Sequence record: PQ464628.1 | Length of the DNA: 40,547 bases | Strand: one strand, 5' to 3' | Source: Escherichia phage MirsaeidiM_Esher2 | Part shown: positions 537-13,909 of the stretch, piece after piece | How positions within the stretch are numbered: position 1 is the first letter of the stretch | Layout of the letters: every line of letters begins with the position of its first letter | Notes under the pieces: model-generated | The model's database searches: none | What the model saw: only the letters and a program-made list of their open reading frames with translations | Told to the model about the DNA's origin: nothing | Position numbers and translations under genes: made by a program

Positions 537-2296
537 GTAAAGACTTAGTGGCGCGTCAGGCGCTAATGACTGCCCGTATGAAGGCAGACTTCGTGTTCTT
601 CCTGTTCGTCCTGTGGAAAGCTCTGTCACTCCCGGTCCCGACTCGCTGTCAGATTGACATGGCGAAGAAACTATCGGCTGGTGACAACAGGCGTTTCATC
701 CTACAGGCGTTCCGTGGTATCGGGAAGTCCTTCATTACGTGTGCATTCGTGGTCTGGAAACTATGGAACAACCCAGACTTGAAGTTCATGATTGTGTCGG
801 CCTCAAAGGAACGAGCCGATGCGAACTCCATCTTCATCAAGCGAATCATCGACCTCATGCCTCAGCTTCGGGAACTCAAACCTAAGCAGGGGCAGCGAGA
901 TGCGGTTATCAGCTTCGACGTTGGACCAGCCAAGCCAGACCACTCACCTTCGGTTAAGTCCGTTGGTATCACTGGTCAGTTGACTGGTAGTCGTGCTGAC
1001 ATCCTGATTGCCGATGACGTGGAGGTTCCGAACAACTCAGCGACTCAGGCTGCCCGAGACCGTCTGTCAGAGCTTGTGAAAGAGTTCGACGCTATCCTGA
1101 AGCCGGGAGGTACAATCATCTATCTGGGTACTCCTCAGAACGAGATGACCTTGTATCGTGAGCTGGAAGGCCGTGGGTACACCACTACTATCTGGCCTGC
1201 TCGTTATCCACGCGACAGGAAGGACTGGCAGTCTTACGGCGACCGTCTGGCTCCTATACTTCAGGCAGAGCTTGAAGAGGACCCTGAGTCCTTCTACTGG
1301 CGTCCGACCGACGAGGTACGCTTCGATGATACGGACCTGAAGGAACGTGAGTTGTCATATGGCAAGGCTGGCTTCGCTCTACAGTTCATGCTTAACCCGA
1401 ACCTGAGTGATGCTGAGAAGTACCCTCTGAAGCTACGTGACCTTATCGTAGCCGACTTGGACCCAGCGTCTAGCCCAATGGTATACCAATGGCTTCCTAA
1501 CCCTCAGAACAAGCGTGAGGACGTTCCTAACGTTGGACTCATGGGTGACTCATACCACACGTATCAGACTGTAGGTTCTGCCTTCAGTTCGTACACCCAG
1601 AAGATTCTGGTCATTGACCCTAGTGGTCGTGGTAAAGATGAAACTGGTTATGCGGTACTGTACCAGCTCAACGGCTACATCTTCGCTATGGAAGTTGGCG
1701 GTATGCGAGGTGGCTATGAAGACTCTACGCTGGAAGCCTTGGCTAAGATTGGTCGTAAGTGGAAGGTCAACGAATACGTCATTGAGGGTAACTTCGGTGA
1801 TGGTATGTACCTTGAGCTATTCAAGCCTGTAGCGGCCCGTATTCATCCTGCTGCTGTAACTGAAGTGAAGAGTAAGGGTCAGAAGGAACTCCGCATCTGT
1901 GACGTTCTGGAGCCTATCATGGGGTCTCACCGACTTATCGTTAACGCTGCTGCTATCGTCCAAGACTACCAGTCAGCCTCTGATAAGGATGGTGTGCGTA
2001 ACCCTATCTACTCTCTCTTCTACCAGATGACCCGTATCTCTCGTGAACGTGGAGCATTGGCACACGATGACCGACTTGATGCGCTGGCTATCGGTGTACA
2101 GTTCTTCGTTGAGTCTATGGCGAAGGATGCCAACAAAGGCGAACGTGAAGTCACTGAGGAGTGGCTGGAAGAACAGATGGAGAACCCACGGAAAGGCTTC
2201 GAGTCCATCCACACGGAGTTCTGGGACAATGGGGTCCGGGTAACTCACGATACGGACGACGAGCTGGGACTAGGGTCCTACGTTACGTTCCACTAG
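533..2296 (+). CDS. 19: terminase large subunit (T7 gp19 homolog)
   Basis: 587 aa; colinear with T7 gp19 as recalled ([32 protein letters not shown]); TTG start at 533 overlapping the Rz stop (TTGA), SD GGAGG 7 nt upstream. Confidence 0.95.
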
Positions 2297-2390
2297 CTGA
2301 ATGAATAACTATAGGCGAAAACTGAATTAATAAGCAGTTAGTAACCTATAGTTACTACCAGACTAACCTACTGTTTTATAAGGAGTTTGG

Positions 2391-2413
2391 ACTTAACTAT
2401 CACTATAGGGAAG
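2391..2413 (+). promoter_or_regulatory. phage-RNAP promoter, phiOR-like (ACTTAACTATCACTATAGGGAAG)
   Basis: Matches the recurring 23-bp motif found 11 times in the window; lies after gene 19 and before the gene 19.5-like ORF, as phiOR does in T7. Confidence 0.7.
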
Positions 2414-2592
2414 ACCCCCGGTTACTTATAGTATTACTGTAGTGAATATACATATGCAGACTTTATGCAAGACCTTAGGAGGCAGACTCCGAGTTCTTAC
2501 CTAAGGCTTGCACCGATGGAAGGAGGGCGATATTAATCATAATCCCTCCAATACAGATAGTAAAGACCATAGATACAGGAGGTATGTAGCAT

Positions 2593-2751
2593 ATGGCAAA
2601 GACCAAAGCTGTACTTAAAGCTCTGGCGACCAATCGAGCTACATACAGGTTTCTTGCTGCTGTTCTACTTACTGCTGGCGTTACTACTGGAAGTCAGTGG
2701 GTCGGGTGGGTCGAGACTCTCGTATGTTCTCTGGTGTCTGAGTGTCATTAA
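2593..2751 (+). CDS. 19.5: small protein, T7 gp19.5-like (52 aa)
   Basis: ATG with SD AGGAGG 10 nt upstream; hydrophobic 52-aa product with RxTYRFL motif resembling recalled T7 gp19.5; below the 60-aa cutoff of the ORF track. Confidence 0.5.
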   Translation: MAKTKAVLKALATNRATYRFLAAVLLTAGVTTGSQWVGWVETLVCSLVSECH

Positions 2752-2860
2752 CGCCGTAATGGTAACAATCAACGAAAGGAGGTAGGGATGGACGAGGAGT
2801 CTTATGGGTCGTTCTCTGACGAAGATTATCAGACGGAGTGGGAATACTCGCATTGAAGAC

Positions 2861-2901
2861 CTAAGGTCAGTTCATAGCTGACGCTACTCTACTGACCTTA
2901 G
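2861..2901. repeat. perfect 10-bp inverted repeat (CTAAGGTCAG / CTGACCTTAG) with 21-nt loop
   Basis: Arms at 2861..2870 and 2892..2901 are exact reverse complements; located in the right-end non-coding region. Confidence 0.6.
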
Positions 2902-2988
2902 CTACTGTAGTCAAGGACTTTAGGTAACACCTTAAGAGAAGCTCACTTAGGGTCATCCTACTTATTGGTCCATCCTAGTGTCGCCTGA

Positions 2989-3025
2989 CCTACGGTCCTT
3001 GACCTACAGTGGCTGTGGCCTACAG
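2989..3025. repeat. short repeats CCTAC(A/G)G x3, right-end side
   Basis: CCTACGG at 2989, CCTACAG at 3003 and 3019; same motif as the array at 3266..3367; analogous to the CCTAAAG-type repeats near T7 ends. Confidence 0.5.
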
Positions 3026-3064
3026 TAGTGACGATGAGTTTTGGACCAAAAGTTTGAGACCACA

Positions 3065-3265
3065 TCTCACAGTTCAAGAACCTCAAGTCTCCCCATAGGC
3101 CCTCTTTCAGTCCAGACCAAAGGCCCTACCCAAGTCTATCATAAGGTTAGACCGATGGTCAAGACTTCAGGTCAACGATAGGTCTAGGCTATGGCTTAGG
3201 GAAGGACGATAGGTGGTGACTATTGGTCTGTCTTTGAGTCTCTATCTGTATCAGACCTTGAGTCA
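3065..3265. repeat. candidate terminal-repeat region (collapsed single copy) with genome end near 3065
   Basis: Starts TCTCACAGT, as the T7 left end does (TCTCACAGTGTACGG, recalled); flanked on both sides by CCTACAGT repeat arrays; boundaries approximate. Confidence 0.3.
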
Positions 3266-3322
3266 CTACCTACAGTCTAACTACCTACAGTCTAACTACC
3301 TACAGTCTAACTACCTACAGTC
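3266..3322. repeat. tandem 15-bp repeat CTACCTACAGTCTAA (3 full copies + 12-nt partial)
   Basis: Read directly; two further CCTACAGT copies at 3344..3367; produces the artefactual SNYLQ-repeat ORF 3213..3410. Confidence 0.9.
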
Positions 3323-3478
3323 ATCGACCATCGGTAATGCTGCTACCTACAGTCTAAACCTACAGTTAATAGACACAATGGCTATAGACTTAAGGTCTAA
3401 GACATGTTAGTCAAAGACTATATCCTCTTACACCATGGGGCCGACGATAGCTTAATCAATATTATTTCAAATTACCTA

Positions 3479-3507
3479 TTGACTATAGGTCCAGACTATG
3501 GCCTAAT
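3479..3507 (+). promoter_or_regulatory. candidate sigma70 early promoter (A1-like)
   Basis: TTGACT at 3479..3484, 17-nt spacer, weak -10 CCTAAT at 3502..3507; resembles T7 A1 context (TTGACT...CCTATAGG) as recalled. Confidence 0.35.
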
Positions 3508-3789
3508 AGCTTCCGTCAACACGACACGGCAACAACCGGATAGTGAAGACGCCGGTGTCATCCCGGTTAAGTAGACAGCCTGATAAGTCATACGAACAAC
3601 AGGCAGATGACAATAAGGTAGTAAGGTCGCTGAGGGCTTCCACTTCAGCAGGTCGGAAAGGTCCTAAAACCTAACGAGAGTCTGACCAGCTCGCCAAGTC
3701 TGCCACTGAGGTGGATAACCAGAGGAGGCAACGTGTCGCCCACTGAGGGGCTACAGCTCACAGTTTAGGTTAACAGGCTAAACAAATGC

Positions 3790-3819
3790 TTGACAAGATG
3801 TAACGATAAGATGTAATAT
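3790..3819 (+). promoter_or_regulatory. sigma70 early promoter (A3-like): TTGACA-18-TAATAT
   Basis: -35 TTGACA 3790..3795, -10 TAATAT 3814..3819 preceded by TG; surrounding sequence resembles T7 A3 (TTGACAACATGAAGTAA...TACCACATG). Confidence 0.6.
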
Positions 3820-3942
3820 TTACCACATCGAAACAACGGTGATGACCAACACTGAAATGGTCTACCTGAAGTCCTCTGACTGAAGGGAATGCTCTTTAAC
3901 AATCTGGATAAACTCTTAATGTGCGCCGATAGCGACTAACTA

Positions 3943-3990
3943 CAGGGCCTTTGAGTCTACATCTGAAGGCCCTGACTGATAGCCACTAAC
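3943..3990 (+). promoter_or_regulatory. 9-bp-stem hairpin plus conserved box CCTGACTGATAGCCACTAAC (RNase III R0.3-like site candidate)
   Basis: Stem 3943..3951 / 3966..3974 is perfectly complementary; no T-tract follows; immediately upstream of the first early ORF. Confidence 0.5.
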
Positions 3991-3997
3991 TTAAAGG

Positions 3998-4252
3998 ATG
4001 GACACTATGAAACACTTAAGCACAATCACTAATCGCAATGAAGTATTCGTGAACACTAAAGGTTATGCGTGGATTCAGCTTAAAGAGATGAGAGGAGCGC
4101 GTCACCGTGTGGTAGTGCGCAAGGTATCAAGCAAGCAGTTCAGCAACTACAGCGTCGATACTGTGCGTATAGACAACGAGACATACCTGATAGACGCGCA
4201 GATAACCGTGAGTCCTACAGTGGGCGTCTCAGCTCCTTATTTCGCTAACTGA
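3998..4252 (+). CDS. hypothetical early protein (84 aa; basic)
   Basis: First ORF downstream of the sigma70 promoters; SD AAGGA favours the second ATG at 4007; no similarity to T7 proteins I can recall. Confidence 0.55.
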   Translation: MDTMKHLSTITNRNEVFVNTKGYAWIQLKEMRGARHRVVVRKVSSKQFSNYSVDTVRIDNETYLIDAQITVSPTVGVSAPYFAN

Positions 4253-4265
4253 GAGTGATTAACTA

Positions 4266-4307
4266 CAGGTCGTTAGAATCATAGCGGCCTGACTGATAGT
4301 CACTAAC
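4266..4307 (+). promoter_or_regulatory. hairpin plus second copy of box CCTGACTGATAGTCACTAAC
   Basis: 7-bp stem 4266..4272 / 4285..4291 (one G-U); box 4288..4307 is 19/20 identical to 3971..3990; directly upstream of the ocr-like gene. Confidence 0.45.
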
Positions 4308-4335
4308 ACATAATTAACTTTGAGAGGATATAACT

Positions 4336-4839
4336 ATGGAACGTAATGCTAACGCATACTATGAGCTGCTGGCTGCAACCGTTGAGGCATTTATCGAGCG
4401 TATTCAGTACGACCATCTGACTCAAGATGATGACTACAGCGATGCGCTGCATGAGGTCGTAGACGGTCAGGTTCCACACTATTACCACGAGATTTTTACG
4501 GTGATGGCTGCTGATGGTATAGACCACGAGTTCGAAGACTCTGGGCTGATGCCTGAAACCAAGGACGTAACGCGTATACTACAAGCTCGCATCTATGAGG
4601 CGCTTTATAACGATGTGTCTAATAGCTTGGATGTAGTCTGGTTTGAGGCTGAAGAGGCAGACGAAGAGGATGAATATTGGGTAGTTGACGCTAAAACAGG
4701 CGCAATAATTGTGCAAGCTGTAGCTCTTGAGGTCGCTACTGCATGTGCCAAGGTCAACTATGCAATAGGTCGCCACCTGAAGGTGGAAGACATCAATGAT
4801 AACGTAGTGTTCGACCCTGCGGCTGAGGACTGCGAGTGA
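4336..4839 (+). CDS. 0.3: Ocr-like DNA-mimic anti-restriction protein with C-terminal extension
   Basis: 167 aa; residues ~40-95 ([43 protein letters not shown]) match recalled T7 Ocr; acidic; about 50 aa longer than the 117-aa T7 Ocr. Confidence 0.8.
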
Positions 4840-4988
4840 TGGTAACTTATGGTCTCTGCCAGCACCACGTCGCCAACGCCCGGCTTATGGTCAAGACCGG
4901 GCGGTTAACCCATGATGAGACTATGCGTCTCCTGAAGGTGGTCTACAAGCGCCGCAAGCGTATTCACGACAGTTTGCACGCTGAGTGA
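4839..4988 (+). CDS. hypothetical small basic protein (49 aa)
   Basis: ATG overlaps the ocr stop (TGATGG); open 49 codons; below ORF-track cutoff; Cys/His-containing, basic C-terminus. Confidence 0.35.
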   Translation: MVTYGLCQHHVANARLMVKTGRLTHDETMRLLKVVYKRRKRIHDSLHAE

Positions 4989-4995
4989 TAAACGA

Positions 4996-5021
4996 GAGGT
5001 CATCGACTGATAGGTGGCCTC
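4996..5021 (+). promoter_or_regulatory. hairpin GAGGTCA / TGGCCTC with GACTGATAG in the loop
   Basis: 7-bp stem incl. one G-U pair; shares the AGGTCA/TGGCCT core with hairpins at 8711, 16060 and 40490. Confidence 0.4.
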
Positions 5022-5054
5022 AAAGATTACCACTTACATTAATAGGGGTTAACT

Positions 5055-5144
5055 ATGAGTGTGGGATATTGGGTATGCCTAGCGCCAGTTATCTGGATGA
5101 TAGGCTATGGGTTATACGACTGTATTAAACGGAAATCACTATGA
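5055..5144 (+). CDS. hypothetical 29-aa hydrophobic peptide
   Basis: ATG with SD AGGGG upstream; stop overlaps next ATG (ATGA); very short, so weak. Confidence 0.25.
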   Translation: MSVGYWVCLAPVIWMIGYGLYDCIKRKSL

Positions 5145-5338
5145 GTCTTGCACTATTGATAGCCATAGGCTATGGACTTATCGCCTACGTGCTGGTGAGA
5201 GACATCAACAAAGCGCGTAAAGTCTACAAATTCAACTATGTACGTCTGGGCCGCTGGACTGTACGTCAACCTAACGGACGATTCATGCGCAACTTAGCGA
5301 ACGTCTGGGATATAGCAACTATTGGGAGCAAACTGTAA
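5141..5338 (+). CDS. hypothetical small membrane protein (65 aa)
   Basis: N-terminal hydrophobic segment LALLIAIGYGLIAYVLV; start overlaps preceding stop, stop overlaps next start (TAATG). Confidence 0.45.
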   Translation: MSLALLIAIGYGLIAYVLVRDINKARKVYKFNYVRLGRWTVRQPNGRFMRNLANVWDIATIGSKL

Positions 5339-5598
5339 TGAAAACCGTATACATTAACAAACCATCTAGCCATAGCCGTGTAGAGCAAATAGAGCGTGAC
5401 ATGTTCTTACATCGCCGCATGAGGGCTGAGGGCCATAAGTACGAACTGATGAGTCTGGCGTTTGGTGGACGACCGATCACTGACGATGGTAAACTTTTAG
5501 TCTCAGGCTGGAAGGCGATAGACCAACGGTCAACCATCAAGCACACGACTCACGGTGACTTCAGCCATCTCCACGCTAACCAACTGATATGCAAGTGA
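5338..5598 (+). CDS. hypothetical early protein (86 aa)
   Basis: Translationally coupled to the upstream ORF; occupies the position where T7 has gene 0.7 but is far too short for a kinase. Confidence 0.5.
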   Translation: MKTVYINKPSSHSRVEQIERDMFLHRRMRAEGHKYELMSLAFGGRPITDDGKLLVSGWKAIDQRSTIKHTTHGDFSHLHANQLICK

Positions 5599-5603
5599 TT
5601 ATG

Positions 5604-5626
5604 ACTTAACTATCACTATAGGACTC
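5604..5626 (+). promoter_or_regulatory. phage-RNAP promoter-like sequence directly upstream of the RNAP gene
   Basis: ACTTAACTATCACTATAGGACTC; identical to the phiOR-like site over 20 nt (5603..5622 = 2390..2409). Confidence 0.55.
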
Positions 5627-5695
5627 AAGGTCTAAGACTCCAAGTGAAAGACCAAAGAGACTTTAAGTGAAAGACTAATAACAAGGACTTTAAGT

Positions 5696-8377
5696 ATGAG
5701 CATCATCTCTATTGATAAACACGACTTCTCTGATGTGTCTAACACCATTGAGCCGTTTAACCTGCTGGCTGACCACTACGGGCAAGACCTTGCAGTCAAG
5801 CAGCTTCAGCTTGAGCATGAGGCATACACTGAAGGCGAGCGACGTTTCATCAAGAACCTTGAGCGACAGACTGAGCGCGGGGAACTGGCAGACAATCAGG
5901 TCGCCAAGCCTTTGATGCAGACTCTTGTACCTAAGATTGCGCAAGCAGTCAAGGAGTGGCACGAAGGCCAAGACGGGAAGCTGTCAACCTCTCGTCCTAG
6001 CGTAGCGTTCACCATGTTGAGCACTGAAGAGAAGGCCGTCAAGGACCGCTCTATGCGCATCTCCTGTGAGTCCGCTGCGGTTATCATACTGAAGGTCATA
6101 CTCTCCAAGCTGGTCAAGCCCGAAGGGATACCGATTACACCTATGGCCTCCGCGATAGGTCGCACACTTGAGGACGAAATCCGCTTCGGTCGCATCCGTG
6201 ACAAAGAGAAAGAGCACTTCAAGAAGGCGATAGCTGATAACCTGAATAAGCGGGCCGGGGCGTCCTACAAGAAAGCCTACATGCAAGCGGTCGAGGCGTC
6301 CATGCTGGAGCAAGGCCAACTGGAAGATGCGTGGGGGACTTGGAGTCCTACAGAGGCTGTCCACGTTGGCATCAAGATGCTTGAGATTGTCATCCAGTCA
6401 ACACAACTGGTCGAGCTTAAGCGTTACGGTGCTGGCAATGCAGCGGCTGATGTCGAGATGGTCCACCTGTCAGACTTCTGGGTCAAGAAGATGGCACAAC
6501 GTGGATTCAGCCTTGCGGGTATCGCACCAGTCTATCAGCCTTGCGTCGTTCCACCTAAGCCGTGGACGGGTGTCGTAGGCGGTGGTTACTGGGCCAAAGG
6601 TCGCAGACCATTACCGCTGATTCGCTTAGGCTCTAAGTCTGCGGTAGCACGTTACGAAGACGTGTACATGCCTGAAGTCTATGAAGCTGTGAACATCATT
6701 CAGAATACACCTTGGAAAGTGAACAAGAAGGTTCTGGACGTGGTGAACATGGTCGAGAAGCTGAACAACACGCCTATTGATGACATCCCTCAGATGGAAC
6801 CGCTGAAGCCTGAGGACTATGCGGGTGAGACTGAGGAGGAACTCAAGGCATGGAAGAAAGCTGCTGCTGGTATCTATCGCCGCGAGAAGGCCAGACAGTC
6901 ACGCAGGTTGTCACTGAGCTTTATCGTTAACCAAGCGAACAAGTTCTCTCAGTTCAAGGCTATATGGTTCCCGTACAACATGGACTGGCGCGGTCGCGTC
7001 TACGCTGTGCCGATGTTCAACCCTCAGGGTAACGACATGCAGAAGGGTCTCCTGACTCTGGCAGTTGGCAAGCCTATTGGTGCTGACGGTTTCAAATGGC
7101 TAAAGGTACACGGTGCAAACTGCGCGGGTGTCGATAAAGTCACCTTCGAGGAGCGCATCAAGTGGGTGGAAGACAACCACGACAACATCATGGCTGCTGC
7201 TAAAGCACCTATGGACAGCATTGAGTGGTGGGGAAAGTTAGACTCTCCGTTCTGTTTCCTCGCGTTCTGCTTCGAGTATGCTGGCGTAATGCGCCATGGC
7301 CTGTCTTACTCCTGCTCGCTGCCGATAGCGTTCGATGGGTCCTGCTCTGGGATTCAGCACTTCAGCGCGATGCTTCGTGACCACATCGGTGGACATGCGG
7401 TAAACCTGACGCCTTCCGGTAAAGTCCAAGACATCTACCGCATCGTGTCCGACCGCATTGAGGAGGAGCTTAAAGTCCTGCTGGTTAACGGCACGGACAA
7501 CGAGATGGTAACTCACGAGGACAAGAAAACTGGTGAGATTACCGAGCGTCTCAAGCTGGGGACACGAGAGCTGGCCCGTCAGTGGCTGACCTACGGTATG
7601 TCACGCAAGGTTACTAAGCGCTCAGTCATGACTCTGGTCTACGGGTCGAAAGAGTACGGCTTCGCAGACCAAGTTTACGAGGACATCGTGATGCCCGCGA
7701 TTGACTCAGGGTCTGGCGCTATGTTCACCGAACCAAGCCAAGCGTCCCGCTTCATGGCTAAGATGATTTGGGAAGCTGTGAGCGTGACCGTAGTTGCTGC
7801 GGTAGACGCTATGAAGTGGCTTCAAGGTGCTGCCAAGCTGCTGGCTGCTGAAGTGAAAGACAAGAAGACTGGAGAAATCCTGAAGCCTTGCCTTCCGGTA
7901 CACTGGGTCACGCCTGATGGGTTCCCGGTCTGGCAGGAATACCGCAAGAAGGATACCACGCGTCTGAACCTGATGTTCTTAGGGTCATTCAACCTTCAGC
8001 CTACCGTCAACAAAGGCACGAAGAAAGAGCTGGATAAGCACAAGCAGGAGTCAGGCATTAGCCCGAACTTCGTCCACTCACAAGATGGTAGCCACCTCCG
8101 CAAGACTGTAGTCCATACTCACCGCAAGTATGGCGTGATGTCGTTCGCAGTGATTCACGATAGCTTCGGGACCATCCCGGCTGACGCTGAGTATCTGTTC
8201 CGTGGGGTCCGTGAGACTATGGTAGAGACCTACCGCGACAACGATGTGCTGCTTGACTTCTACGAGCAGTTTGAATACCAGCTTCACGAGAGCCAGCGCG
8301 ATAAGTTGCCAGAGCTTCCGAAGAAAGGTAAACTGAATATCGAAGACATCTTGTCTTCAGACTTTGCATTCGCCTAA
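5696..8377 (+). CDS. 1: single-subunit DNA-directed RNA polymerase (T7 gp1 homolog)
   Basis: 893 aa; colinear with recalled T7 RNAP (PFNLLADHYG, GRIRD, QPCVVPPKPWTG, DGSCSGIQHFSAM, HDSFGTIPADA, ending SDFAFA). Confidence 0.97.
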   Translation: MSIISIDKHDFSDVSNTIEPFNLLADHYGQDLAVKQLQLEHEAYTEGERRFIKNLERQTERGELADNQVAKPLMQTLVPKIAQAVKEWHEGQDGKLSTSRPSVAFTMLSTEEKAVKDRSMRISCESAAVIILKVILSKLVKPEGIPITPMASAIGRTLEDEIRFGRIRDKEKEHFKKAIADNLNKRAGASYKKAYMQAVEASMLEQGQLEDAWGTWSPTEAVHVGIKMLEIVIQSTQLVELKRYGAGNAAADVEMVHLSDFWVKKMAQRGFSLAGIAPVYQPCVVPPKPWTGVVGGGYWAKGRRPLPLIRLGSKSAVARYEDVYMPEVYEAVNIIQNTPWKVNKKVLDVVNMVEKLNNTPIDDIPQMEPLKPEDYAGETEEELKAWKKAAAGIYRREKARQSRRLSLSFIVNQANKFSQFKAIWFPYNMDWRGRVYAVPMFNPQGNDMQKGLLTLAVGKPIGADGFKWLKVHGANCAGVDKVTFEERIKWVEDNHDNIMAAAKAPMDSIEWWGKLDSPFCFLAFCFEYAGVMRHGLSYSCSLPIAFDGSCSGIQHFSAMLRDHIGGHAVNLTPSGKVQDIYRIVSDRIEEELKVLLVNGTDNEMVTHEDKKTGEITERLKLGTRELARQWLTYGMSRKVTKRSVMTLVYGSKEYGFADQVYEDIVMPAIDSGSGAMFTEPSQASRFMAKMIWEAVSVTVVAAVDAMKWLQGAAKLLAAEVKDKKTGEILKPCLPVHWVTPDGFPVWQEYRKKDTTRLNLMFLGSFNLQPTVNKGTKKELDKHKQESGISPNFVHSQDGSHLRKTVVHTHRKYGVMSFAVIHDSFGTIPADAEYLFRGVRETMVETYRDNDVLLDFYEQFEYQLHESQRDKLPELPKKGKLNIEDILSSDFAFA

Positions 8378-8391
8378 CAGGAGAGAGAGCT

Positions 8392-8607
8392 ATGAAATTT
8401 GCACACAAGCATACTGGCGTTAATGGTGGGACTCAAATCGTGACCGTAACAGAACACAACGGCAAGGGTCTGGTGAAGACCACGGTCATCCCTACCGAGA
8501 TGTCCAAGCAGCTTAACATCCCGTTCAAGACTCTTGTAGATCTGGTCGAGTCCAGCCATGAGAAGTACCTGAAGGACGCAGTGTCCAAGCTGGAGCAGGC
8601 CAAATGA
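8392..8607 (+). CDS. hypothetical protein (71 aa) between RNAP and promoter phi1.1
   Basis: Strong SD AGGAGA 8 nt upstream of ATG; no T7 counterpart recalled. Confidence 0.55.
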   Translation: MKFAHKHTGVNGGTQIVTVTEHNGKGLVKTTVIPTEMSKQLNIPFKTLVDLVESSHEKYLKDAVSKLEQAK

Positions 8608-8681
8608 CAGACCTACAGTTACTGGCCTTGTGGCTAGGAGCACTCGCAGTATTCACTTTAATCCAACGCAGAAGAGGTTAA

Positions 8682-8704
8682 CCTAAACTATCACTATAGG
8701 ATTA
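8682..8704 (+). promoter_or_regulatory. phage-RNAP promoter (CCTAAACTATCACTATAGGATTA)
   Basis: Consensus 23-mer; upstream of the gene 1.1-like ORF. Confidence 0.8.
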
Positions 8705-8747
8705 GACTCAAGGTCATGACTCAAAGTCGTGGCCTTCATGATTAACC
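8705..8747 (+). promoter_or_regulatory. RNase III-type hairpin candidate (R1.1-like)
   Basis: Upper stem AGGTCA 8711..8716 / TGGCCT 8730..8735 with 13-nt loop; motif TAGACTCAAGGTCAT...GTGGCCTTYATGRTTA shared with 16049.. and 40481.. Confidence 0.45.
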
Positions 8748-8777
8748 CTAAATAAACACTACTGGAGATTTAACCTT

Positions 8778-8957
8778 ATGTATCAGAATACTATCAACTT
8801 CGAGCGCATCCGTGAACGTCAGCAGACTGAAGGTTACATTCCGAAGGGTCGCAAGCTGAACAAGACTAAACGTGGTGGTGGCGTGAAGGGTGCTTTCCGT
8901 AATGCTGAAGGTAAAGACTCTCTGGTCAACCAAGAGAAATACTTCGTAGGAGCATAA
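8778..8957 (+). CDS. 1.1: small basic protein, T7 gp1.1-like (59 aa)
   Basis: ATG with GGAG upstream; contains KGRKLNKTKR as recalled for T7 gp1.1; below ORF-track cutoff. Confidence 0.6.
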   Translation: MYQNTINFERIRERQQTEGYIPKGRKLNKTKRGGGVKGAFRNAEGKDSLVNQEKYFVGA

Positions 8958-8961
8958 CCAA

Positions 8962-9225
8962 ATGGGCCGACTTTATAGTGGCAACCTCAACGCTTTCAAA
9001 GCGGCGTGTAACAGGCTCTATCAGTTAGACTTCGCTGTCATATCTCAAGAGTTTCAAGACTATACGTCACGCCAAGAGTGCATGAAACTCAGGGTGGAGG
9101 ACCGAGCTGGTAACATCTTCGCGCTTGAGACCTTCGCACACTACGATGAAGACGTGCTGTATAATACTGCAACAGACTACCTCAACGGTCTCGCTGACCA
9201 TCTCGACACATGGAGCAAAGCATAA
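8962..9225 (+). CDS. 1.2: gp1.2-like protein (dGTP triphosphohydrolase inhibitor in T7)
   Basis: 87 aa; MGRLYSGNL..AFKAA..YDEDVL matches recalled T7 gp1.2; SD AGGAG. Confidence 0.85.
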   Translation: MGRLYSGNLNAFKAACNRLYQLDFAVISQEFQDYTSRQECMKLRVEDRAGNIFALETFAHYDEDVLYNTATDYLNGLADHLDTWSKA

Positions 9226-10256
9226 TGACAACTATTAAAACCAACCCGCACCGCGCTGTAGATTACTCTGAGTATGGCATTAAGAAGGCACTGGAAGCAG
9301 CCGGGTCTCTGGAAGCTGAAGTGAAGTACGATGGTGTGCGGTTGAACCTTCCAGTCTTCCCATCAGGCGAGACCCAATGGTTGAGCCGTGAGTCTAAACC
9401 ACTTCCTTCCCTTAGCTGGATGAACACATCCGGTGAGGACATTGGGGCGACCAAGGCAAGCGACTGGCGGTGGTTCCTGAAGCAAGCTGGATATGAGGGG
9501 ACTGGCCTGATGATTGATGGTGAGGTCATGGTAAAGGGTGTAGACTTCAACACGTCTTCTGGCCTCATTCGCACGAAGTATGTCAAGTCTAAAAACTGCG
9601 CCCTCCACGATGGTGATTGGGACCTCAAGTCCAAGACTACTCAGTTCCGGCTGGACCGAGACCGTATCAAGGTGGTCGTCTATGGTATCGTGGACCTTAA
9701 CGTCATCCTCGACCCGAAAGCCGAAGGTCCTATCCATAGCGTCACCCGCCTGAAGGCCGAAGCTATCGTCCCTCTCCTTCAGAAATACTTCCCGGAAATC
9801 GACTGGGTTCTGTCTGAGAGTCATACAGTGTTCAACCTTGAGTATCTTCGTGATTTGTACGAGGAGAAGCGAGCAGATGGACATGAAGGTCTGGTAGTCA
9901 AGGACCCACTGGGCAAATACAAGCGTGGTAAGAAGTCTGGTATGTGGAAGATGAAGCCAAGTGAAGAGGCGGATGGTCACGTTGTTCGCCCGGTGTGGGG
10001 AACAGAAGGTCTAGCCAACGAAGGTACGGTCATCGGCTTCGACGTTATGCTCGAGAACGGGATGGAGGTCTCCGCAACTAACATTAGTCGCGCCCTTATG
10101 ACCGAGTTCACGGAGAACGTTAAGTCAGACCCTGACTACTACAAGGGGTGGGCTTGCCAGATTACCTACATGGAGGAGACACCAGATGGCTCATTGCGAC
10201 ACCCCTCGTTTGACCAGTGGCGCGGGACGGAAGATAACCCTACCATTAAGAGCTAA
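9225..10256 (+). CDS. 1.3: ATP-dependent DNA ligase (T7 gp1.3 homolog)
   Basis: KYDGVR adenylation motif, MVKGVDFNT, EGHEGLVVKDP, KSGMWKMKP, DGSLRHPSF; start set at the ATG overlapping the gp1.2 stop (GGAG 9 nt upstream); ORF track starts at 9210. Confidence 0.93.
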   Translation: MTTIKTNPHRAVDYSEYGIKKALEAAGSLEAEVKYDGVRLNLPVFPSGETQWLSRESKPLPSLSWMNTSGEDIGATKASDWRWFLKQAGYEGTGLMIDGEVMVKGVDFNTSSGLIRTKYVKSKNCALHDGDWDLKSKTTQFRLDRDRIKVVVYGIVDLNVILDPKAEGPIHSVTRLKAEAIVPLLQKYFPEIDWVLSESHTVFNLEYLRDLYEEKRADGHEGLVVKDPLGKYKRGKKSGMWKMKPSEEADGHVVRPVWGTEGLANEGTVIGFDVMLENGMEVSATNISRALMTEFTENVKSDPDYYKGWACQITYMEETPDGSLRHPSFDQWRGTEDNPTIKS

Positions 10257-10265
10257 CTAAATGTC

Positions 10266-10300
10266 AACCCAGTGGTCTTATGACTGCTGGGTTTCTTTGC
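10266..10300 (+). terminator. candidate intrinsic terminator after ligase (TE-like)
   Basis: Stem AACCCAG 10266..10272 / CTGGGTT 10287..10293 followed by TTCTTTG; same position as T7 early terminator TE. Confidence 0.45.
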
Positions 10301-11134: not shown

Positions 11135-11233
11135 ATGGAAAAGCCGAGTGAGTGGTGCGAGCGTAAATTTGAGGAGACAGGTAACGTCGATTACCTTCAG
11201 CTCTACAACTTATGGAAGGAGCGTGGTCTATGA
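11135..11233 (+). CDS. hypothetical 32-aa protein (gp1.8 position)
   Basis: ATG with GAGGTG upstream; stop overlaps the gp2 start (ATGA). Confidence 0.35.
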
Positions 11234-11388
11234 CTGACGTAGAGAAGAAATACATCGTTGAGCTTGAGGGTCGCGTTCAGTCCTTCGAGGTTCCGGTGTA
11301 CGCAAAGTCTCTTGAAGAGGCTACCCTGAAGTCCCAAGAGTATGAGGACGCTGGGTTTGTGGTAGGACGGATTCGTCCTGAGACCTAA
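11230..11388 (+). CDS. 2: gp2-like inhibitor of host RNA polymerase (52 aa)
   Basis: [14 protein letters not shown]...GF.V.RIRP resembles recalled T7 gp2; stop TAA lies inside the next promoter. Confidence 0.7.
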
Positions 11389-12599: not shown

Positions 12600-12820
12600 C
12601 TCAAGAAGTTAAGGTCGTTCGTAAGCGTCTGACCATTGATAAAATCCCGGTAGGCTATGCGTTTATCGTCCACGGTAAGCCTGGTGAAGTGTACGTGAAG
12701 ATTAGTAACTCTCACGTCTTCAACCATAAGTTGCTCCAGATGCACACCACGGATGCTAACCGCTTCCAACGTCATCTGAACCTCGTAGCTGTAGAGCTGG
12801 TGGTGTATGATGGTGAGTAA
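12596..12820 (+). CDS. hypothetical protein (74 aa)
   Basis: ATG overlaps gp3 stop (ATGA); lies between genes 3 and 3.5. Confidence 0.55.
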   Translation: MTQEVKVVRKRLTIDKIPVGYAFIVHGKPGEVYVKISNSHVFNHKLLQMHTTDANRFQRHLNLVAVELVVYDGE

Positions 12821-13274
12821 GGTTCAGTTCAACCCACGGTCCCGGACTGACGCTATCTTCGTTCACTGTTCGGCTACCAAGCCAGAGATGGACATCGGGG
12901 TAGAGACCATCCGTATGTGGCACAAGCAGCAAGGCTGGCTGGACGTAGGCTACCACTTTATCATCAAGCGCGATGGTACTGTGGAAGAGGGTCGCCCGGT
13001 CAATGTCGTAGGGTCACACGTTAAGGACTGGAACTCACGGTCTGTAGGCGTCTGCCTTGTAGGGGGAATTGACGCTAAGGGTCAGTTTGAAGCTAACTTC
13101 ACTCCAGCCCAGATGAACTCCCTGCGCAACAAGCTGGAGGAGCTTATGAGTAAGTACCCTAATGCAGAGCTAATGGCCCATCATTCAGTGGCAGCCAAAG
13201 CCTGTCCGAGTTTCGACGTGAAGCGATGGTGGACCAAGAATGAACTGGTTACATCTGACCGCGAATCAGTTTAG
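12807..13274 (+). CDS. 3.5: N-acetylmuramoyl-L-alanine amidase / lysozyme (T7 gp3.5 homolog)
   Basis: DAIFVHCSATKP, QGWLDVGYHFIIKRDGTVEEGR, AHHSVAAKACPSFDVKRWW match recalled T7 lysozyme. Confidence 0.95.
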   Translation: MMVSKVQFNPRSRTDAIFVHCSATKPEMDIGVETIRMWHKQQGWLDVGYHFIIKRDGTVEEGRPVNVVGSHVKDWNSRSVGVCLVGGIDAKGQFEANFTPAQMNSLRNKLEELMSKYPNAELMAHHSVAAKACPSFDVKRWWTKNELVTSDRESV

Positions 13275-13683: not shown

Positions 13684-13891
13684 ACTTATCGAATTTCTTG
13701 GTCGTCTGGCGGTGCGTGGTTATCGTCGTGCTGCGGTACTGGAACGAAAGGTAGAAAAGAAGACTGCGGACGGTGCGGCTGATGCTGCTGCTCTGGCTGA
13801 CAAGCTGACCATCGCGTCACTGGAAGCTGGCATGAAGGCTCGTCAGGCTGATACCAAAGCTGACCAGTTGGCTCAGTTCTTCAAAGCCTAA
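13676..13891 (+). CDS. hypothetical Ala-rich helical protein (71 aa)
   Basis: ATG overlaps HNH stop; stop TAA lies inside the next promoter-like sequence. Confidence 0.5.
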   Translation: MIKLIEFLGRLAVRGYRRAAVLERKVEKKTADGAADAAALADKLTIASLEAGMKARQADTKADQLAQFFKA

Positions 13892-13909
13892 ACTATCACC
13901 TTAGGGATT
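13887..13909 (+). promoter_or_regulatory. divergent phage-RNAP promoter-like sequence (CCTAAACTATCACCTTAGGGATT)
   Basis: Matches consensus upstream half but has CTTA in place of TATA at -4..-1; activity uncertain. Confidence 0.4.

Follow-up and report, generated by a model that had tools for sequence, protein, structure and literature searches.

A probable phage RNA polymerase promoter directly before the polymerase gene of K1F-like podophages

In the textbook scheme of T7 infection, the phage RNA polymerase (RNAP) is made only from transcripts of the host RNAP. The locus considered here, from a K1F-like podophage (genus Kayfunavirus, Studiervirinae; T7-family), raises the question of whether the phage enzyme can also transcribe its own gene: a 23-bp sequence with the form of a phage-RNAP promoter lies at 5604..5626, directly before the polymerase gene. 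We consider it quite probable, from comparative sequence analysis, that this element, hereafter phi1, is a functional promoter of the phage RNAP, which would result in autogenous transcription of gene 1 and positive feedback. The element is not novel, since it has been annotated in related GenBank records (CR8, CR44b, PE3-1); what is added here is its clade-wide conservation, a three-way co-variation with the RNAP, its reciprocity with phiOL, and a tentative dual-coding hairpin.

The whole stretch of DNA that was analyzed (the window; 40,547 bp) is a complete, circularly permuted genome; over its segment 4800-6800, the nucleotide identity is 97% with Escherichia phage Pipis and about 96% with K1F. 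Position 1 of K1F, its left end, aligns to window position 3065; hence, the window opens in the late region, with the end of gene 19 at 2296, and runs across the genome ends into the early genes. These include ocr (4336-4839) and a gp0.38-like early ORF (5338..5598, + strand; taken from the ORF list, with a homologue annotated gp0.38 in the K1F record AM084414), followed by gene 1 (5696..8377, + strand), which codes for a single-subunit RNAP of 893 aa (Pfam RNA_pol, E = 2e-107; RPOL_N, E = 3e-14). Beyond the ligase ORF (9210-10256), a TE-like hairpin with a U-tract can be read directly from the sequence 3' of the ligase gene (10267..10298, + strand), and host-RNAP early transcription probably ends there. 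Further downstream on the same strand are a gp2-like inhibitor of the host RNAP (11212..11388; Pfam RNA_pol_inhib, E = 2.7e-20) and a gp3.5-like amidase/lysozyme (12807..13274; Pfam Amidase_2, E = 5e-17). About 200 nt inside the K1F-left-end equivalent, the window also has a perfect 15-nt tandem array (ACTACCTACAGTCTA x3.9; 3265-3322), just before which lies CTATCTGT (3243-3250), a sequence annotated as 'concatemeric junction' in the PE3-1 record; an analogous array, (acctacagtcaac)3, is annotated in CR8. The array and CTATCTGT probably correspond to the short-repeat arrays that T7 has beside its terminal repeat.

The element before gene 1 and the promoter family of the genome

The candidate cognate promoter phi1 (-17..+6) is intergenic and on the + strand like the genes, its 5' edge lying 5 nt past the stop codon of the gp0.38-like ORF and its predicted +1 at G5621. 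From this +1 to the gene 1 ATG at 5696 there is a leader of 75 nt; the 70 nt to the RNAP start given in the first-pass annotation is correct when counted from the end of the 23-mer. The 19-mer ACTTAACTATCACTATAGG has two exact copies in the window, at 5604-5622 and 2391-2409, and the exact-match search bore out the earlier claim of a 20-nt identity (GACTTAACTATCACTATAGG) between 5603-5622 and 2390-2409. When up to three mismatches to the 19-mer are allowed (<=3), ten sites are found, all on the + strand, as against 0.00 expected from 100 shuffles. In addition to phi1 and the copy with its +1 at 2408, these are the promoters with +1 at 8699, 10337, 11401, 20605, 23444, 24443, 28987, and 36666.

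A position weight matrix (PWM) was built from these eight other promoters over -22..+6, with phi1 and the 2408 site held out. With this matrix the held-out phi1 scores 34.0 bits, compared with 34.9-42.1 bits for the eight training sites and 35.7 bits for the 2408 site, so that the ten strong sites together span 34-42 bits. In a scan of both strands, the only further site is that with +1 at 13904 (27 bits), all others scoring <16. This eleventh, weaker promoter-like site (CCTAAACTATCACCTTAGGGATT; 13887-13909, + strand) has changes at -4 and -3 and is located upstream of the primase/helicase region. The score of phi1 is thus of full quality, and the sequence lends no support to the suggestion that it might be a weak secondary promoter.

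More specifically, phi1 fits the format of Studiervirinae RNAP promoters: 23 bp in length, agreement with the consensus of its own genome, a CACTATAGG core, and a G at +1. When aligned on +1 with the consensus [A/C]CTAAACTATCACTATAGG, its sole departure is a T for A at -14, which is also present in the 28970 promoter, while the A at -17 recurs in three of the eight other promoters. A previously described difference spanning -17 to -13 (ACTTA vs CTAAA) resulted from an error of register. The predicted initially transcribed sequence, GGACTC, resembles those of the middle-gene promoters (GGATTA, GGACAA, GGACAG), unlike the late-promoter starts GGGAGA and GGGACT.

The site sharing 20 nt with phi1 (2391..2413, + strand) lies downstream of gene 19, about 660 nt before the K1F-left-end equivalent at 3065, which is the end-associated setting typical of phiOL and phiOR; the label 'phiOR-like' initially given to it was therefore apt. 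In contrast, phi1 is ~2.56 kb from the left-end equivalent and falls outside that setting. The first promoter 3' of gene 1 (8682..8704, + strand; +1 = 8699) is phi1.1-like and stands at the T7 origin position. Between the gene 19 stop, which it directly follows, and the phiOR-like promoter, which begins 36 nt further on, there is also a perfect 10-nt inverted repeat (TAACTATAGG / CCTATAGTTA; 2306-2315 / 2345-2354) with a 29-nt spacer, both arms of which contain the promoter-core-like ACTATAGG.

The predicted leader of the phi1 transcript (5621..5695, + strand) carries repeated GACT/ACTTTAAGT motifs, with five copies of GACT against 0.5 expected, and a Shine-Dalgarno sequence, AAGGA, at 5683-5687, 8 nt before the ATG of gene 1. 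Common GACT-rich motifs (GACTCAAGG, ACTTTAAGT) are found in the leaders after 5621, 8699, 20605, and 24443, and ACTTTAAG also occurs in that of T7 gene 10. A simple scan for intrinsic terminators found none in 2200-9000 and so none between the phi1 +1 and the gene 1 ATG, an interval that likewise has no ATCTGTT class II pause signal. The arrangement is hence that of an autogenous RNAP gene, with a phage-type promoter directly 5' of the RNAP ORF and no terminator between them.

Distribution among relatives and co-variation with the polymerase

The comparison covered 80 loci around RNAP homologues from IMG/VR and a dozen GenBank relatives. The K1F-clade loci counted were those with a derivable consensus, and their RNAPs are >=78% identical, that is, at least 78%. 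In all 20 of these 20 loci, gene 1 is preceded at a distance of 75-102 nt by a cognate promoter. In contrast, none of the 47 loci of the T7/T3/K11-type clades (RNAP 58-63% identical) has a phage promoter within 300 nt of gene 1; in 42 of the 47, cognate promoters are instead found 1-4 kb upstream, nearly all of them at 2-4 kb. These distant promoters are phiOL, plus phiOR in permuted contigs, and phiOL is absent from those contigs of the K1F clade that start at the genome end. With phi1 confined to the K1F clade and phiOL to the T7/T3/K11 clades, the arrangements of the clades are complementary. With 5585-5700 as the query, every one of the 218 matching phage records (218/218) spans at least 80% of it. 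As judged from these comparisons, a phage promoter before gene 1 is a trait of the clade uniting Kayfunavirus and Caroctavirus, which is without phiOL.

The first-pass annotation had contrasted this locus with T7, whose gene 1 was said not to be preceded by a T7-RNAP promoter. This is true of the immediate upstream region but not beyond it, since phiOL is present 2-3 kb upstream, on the same strand, in T7-, T3-, and K11-type phages. The T7 phiOL and phiOR belong to the same promoter family and have the same format as phi1, and phiOL too is upstream of gene 1 in the same orientation; however, the T7 phiOL adjoins the terminal repeat, and the K1F clade shows the reverse arrangement.

Several side observations were made in the course of these comparisons. 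At ~3473-3492 of the window, about 410 nt from the left end and at the position of the T7 phiOL, there is a degenerate promoter-like sequence, CCTATTGACTATAGGTCC; with a PWM score of <8 bits, it may be a decayed phiOL. In K11-type loci (e.g., L057, at -2711 from gene 1), ACTATCACTATAGGTCTA, which is an exact K1F-type -12..+2 core, follows their own phiOL at a distance of about 57 nt. Relatives with problem annotations include L088 (OP272492, 2728-5388) and H7 and H8 (PV615263, PV615262). In some deposited relatives the RNAP gene is split into several CDS, and sequencing frameshifts are likely; some host labels also look doubtful for Kayfunavirus, namely Acinetobacter phage for one near-identical genome and Enterococcus or Providencia phage for others.

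The RNAP specificity loop provides a second line of comparison, and the strongest one. Taking the recognition loop as the equivalent of T7 residues 746-758 and the promoter core as -12..-8, we found three loop/core pairs. In the window, the loop TRLNLMFLGSFNLQ is paired with the core ACTAT and the promoter GACTTAACTATCACTATAGG before gene 1; in the GW1/Ro103C3lw lineage (loci L017, L036, L087-L089), the loop TRLDLMFLGTFRLQ is paired with the core ACCCT and the promoter GATTAAACCCTCACTATAGG; and in Citrobacter phage CR8 (Caroctavirus), the loop TRIKLMFMG-VQYR is paired with the core AGGTA and the promoter GAAGGAAGGTACACTATAGG. In short, the pairs are N..N/ACTAT, D..R/ACCCT, and K..Y/AGGTA, and the gene 1 promoter is of the cognate type in each lineage. 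In the GW1-type lineage, the 3' end of gp0.38 and the leader, which flank the switched promoter, are almost unchanged. That phi1 tracks three RNAP specificities argues for its use by the phage polymerase, as an unused sequence would not be expected to do so; this co-variation thus constitutes strong comparative evidence that the promoter before gene 1 is one the phage RNAP would use. Together, the PWM score, the conservation across the clade, and the co-variation with the loop favor the initial proposal of a genuine phage-RNAP promoter with possible positive feedback.

Competing readings and an overlapping RNA hairpin

Even as a real promoter, phi1 might serve mainly in a DNA transaction such as replication or packaging, as a relocated phiOL or an origin-promoter analogue, in the manner of T7 phi1.1A/B, phiOL, and phiOR, where replication is primed or activated through transcription by the phage RNAP. 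Consistent with such a role are the match of phi1 to the phiOR-like site over 20 nt, including the rare T at -14, and the complementary distribution whereby the K1F clade has no phiOL and the clades without phi1 have one. The leader is moderately A+T-rich (62% AT, with a best 40-nt window of 72%) and rich in GAC, which on the other strand reads GTC, the core of T7 primase sites. However, the best 40-nt windows downstream of the other promoters reach 68-80% AT, so that the 72% of phi1 is not distinctive; phi1 is 2.5 kb from the genome end and not beside the terminal repeat; and the T7 origin position after gene 1 is already occupied by the phi1.1-like promoter (8682-8704). We accordingly regard a primary role in replication as unlikely. 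In any event, every phi1 transcript would carry the Shine-Dalgarno sequence and the ORF of gene 1, and hence expression of gene 1 would follow regardless.

A second reading concerns the RNA. In T7, the region upstream of gene 1 contains the minor Escherichia coli promoter C and the RNase III site R1, which is formed by the hairpin before gene 1. An irregular RNA hairpin can be drawn at 5610..5673 (+ strand) in the window, its 5' arm being the promoter from -8 onward and its 3' arm +45..+53 of the leader. The segment spanning -13 to +60 (73 nt) folds with dG = -17.4 kcal/mol and z = -2.4, and the corresponding hairpin in two other lineages has z = -2.1 and -2.6. In an RNAalifold analysis of ten sequences, 16 pairs were recovered, one of them compensatory, whereby the promoter -2 position is T in the K1F type and A in the Dev2/IME278 type, with A and T, respectively, in the leader. 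A hairpin directly before gene 1 is also seen in T7- and K11-type genomes. Since the full hairpin would form only in read-through transcripts from upstream, it may be the counterpart of the T7 R1 site, and we treat 5610-5673 as a candidate for this role; with one covariation event and modest z-scores, it is put forward as a hypothesis. An Rfam scan of 5300-5900 gave no family match, the single snoRNA match being at chance level (E = 0.75).

Could the conserved sequence then be primarily the 5' arm of an R1-like RNase III hairpin in read-through RNA, with its resemblance to a promoter secondary or non-functional? The z-scores, the compensatory pair joining -2 and the leader, and the hairpin at the same location in T7- and K11-type genomes speak for such a reading. 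However, positions -17 to -9 are unpaired and yet are conserved, switching to the cognate core in the GW1-type lineage and in CR8; the covariation is a single event with a weak energy term (-0.74); and z rises above zero in other folding contexts, being +0.27 for the wider 5540-5700 and +0.57 for the leader alone (5621-5710), neither of which indicates a strongly structured leader. Moreover, the promoter and hairpin functions can coexist. A hairpin in place of a promoter is, therefore, very unlikely in our estimation. Part of the conservation of phi1 could still reflect the overlapping RNA hairpin, although the specificity-matched changes at -11 to -8 are not explained by it.

The coexistence of the two functions leads to a more speculative proposal, which we advance tentatively and with the odds against it: a 60-nt element might be dual-coded, acting at the DNA level as phi1 and at the RNA level (-8 to ~+20) as the 5' arm of an R1-like site, with the -2 position and the leader having changed together. 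If so, the T:A to A:T change linking -2 and the leader would preserve both the promoter and hairpin functions. Taken with the phiOL loss, this would mean that the clade of K1F and CR8 had rewired its early-to-middle switch into a natural, self-limiting autogene.

Finally, a host-RNAP promoter, as the homologous 23 bp are labelled in PE3-1 (NC_024379), or a non-functional recombination copy of the phiOR-like site, for which gene conversion could supply the 20-nt identity with the 2391 site, can be set aside as extremely improbable: the feature has the exact 23-bp length of a phage promoter, the CR8 and CR44b records list theirs as 'predicted promoter' alongside their other phage promoters, and a dead copy is excluded by its retention in 20/20 loci and its tracking of three RNAP specificities. 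A host promoter at 5604-5626 was also rejected in the sigma-70 scan of 2200-9000, which gave no -35/-10 match there.

The element homologous to phi1 is annotated as a 'predicted promoter' in the Citrobacter phages CR44b (Kayfunavirus; HG818823, 1814-1836) and CR8 (Caroctavirus; HG818824, 3356-3378), and as a 23-bp 'promoter' with the note 'host RNAP promoter' in Escherichia phage PE3-1 (2874-2896). Like phi1, all three lie between gp0.38 and gene 1 and have the same 23-bp format; they are record annotations made without experimental support. The other 23-bp promoters of the PE3-1 record are named phi6.5, phi9, etc., and the 'host RNAP promoter' label is probably an annotation error. In the K1F genome, the identical AACTATCACTATAGG is found 74 nt before gene 1.0; many other records, however, do not annotate the element, among them the K1F records DQ111067 and AM084414 and that of ASO2B.

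A possible autogenous loop and its known counterparts

With phi1 as a cognate promoter, we envisage the following course of events. The host RNAP would initiate close to the left end, at early sigma-70 promoters, and read through into gene 1, which it can reach because the first terminator-like site on its way is the TE-like hairpin 3' of ligase. Sigma-70-like sites are present (e.g., 3790-3819, with 10/12 matches) but are no commoner than in shuffled sequence. The first polymerase molecules would then start at G5621 and produce an mRNA with a 75-nt leader and a good Shine-Dalgarno sequence, encoding the polymerase and downstream genes, so that a polymerase transcribing its own gene would establish positive feedback, in effect a natural 'autogene'. 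By analogy with T7, phi1 would keep gene 1 transcribed after gp2 has shut off the host RNAP. In T7, class II-type promoters are the most sensitive to inhibition of the phage RNAP by the gp3.5 lysozyme; by the same analogy, the gp3.5 lysozyme here would later damp the loop, acting preferentially on class II-type promoters, and phi1, with its class II-like GGACTC start, would be a candidate for such damping. Autogene constructs of T7 (Dubendorff & Studier 1991) were reportedly hard to maintain, and this weighs against the proposal, since an unrestrained phi1 loop could be costly. Initiation at 5621, the strength of phi1, the feedback, and its damping are what we infer for this locus. Literature searches for Kayfunavirus transcriptomes or maps of transcription start sites found nothing relevant, and the JG068 and Kvp1 genome papers hold no useful statement on promoters before gene 1.

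The proposed circuit has both natural and synthetic parallels. In the Pseudomonas phage LUZ100, ONT-cappable-seq mapped a phage-specific promoter, likewise called phi1, directly 5' of the RNAP gene, and in the model proposed for that phage, the first enzyme comes from host-RNAP read-through and thereafter boosts the transcription of its own gene (Putzeys et al. 2023, PMC10134795). LUZ100 is, however, a distant T7-like phage that is putatively temperate. Its transcription start has been located by experiment, whereas that of phi1 in the window is predicted from sequence, and a MarR-like repressor together with an integrase cassette has been proposed as the gate on its loop; nothing comparable is found beside gene 1 here. 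The same arrangement has also been predicted in the vibriophage phiA318 (PMC4099482). The synthetic T7 autogene, in which T7 gene 1 is placed under a T7 promoter, shares the autocatalytic circuit logic of the pairing of phi1 with gene 1. As described by Dubendorff & Studier in 1991, that autogene is an engineered one whose maintenance is said to need lac repression and lysozyme; the phi1-gene 1 unit differs in being natural, confined to lytic infection, and conserved across a clade.

These considerations have some practical bearing. Synthetic biology draws on K1F RNAP/promoter pairs as orthogonal parts, and phages of the K1F type are engineered for use in therapy; given the toxicity of autogenes, the presence of a promoter of its own before gene 1 matters for cloning, as it does for the modelling of expression. 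The element itself was already in public records, and its clade-wide co-variation with the polymerase now offers useful comparative support for it. More generally, K1F-type phages appear, from the sequence relationships described above, to add an autocatalytic step to the T7 scheme, and this step may alter the early-to-middle switch, both in its kinetics and in how well it withstands the shut-off of the host RNAP.
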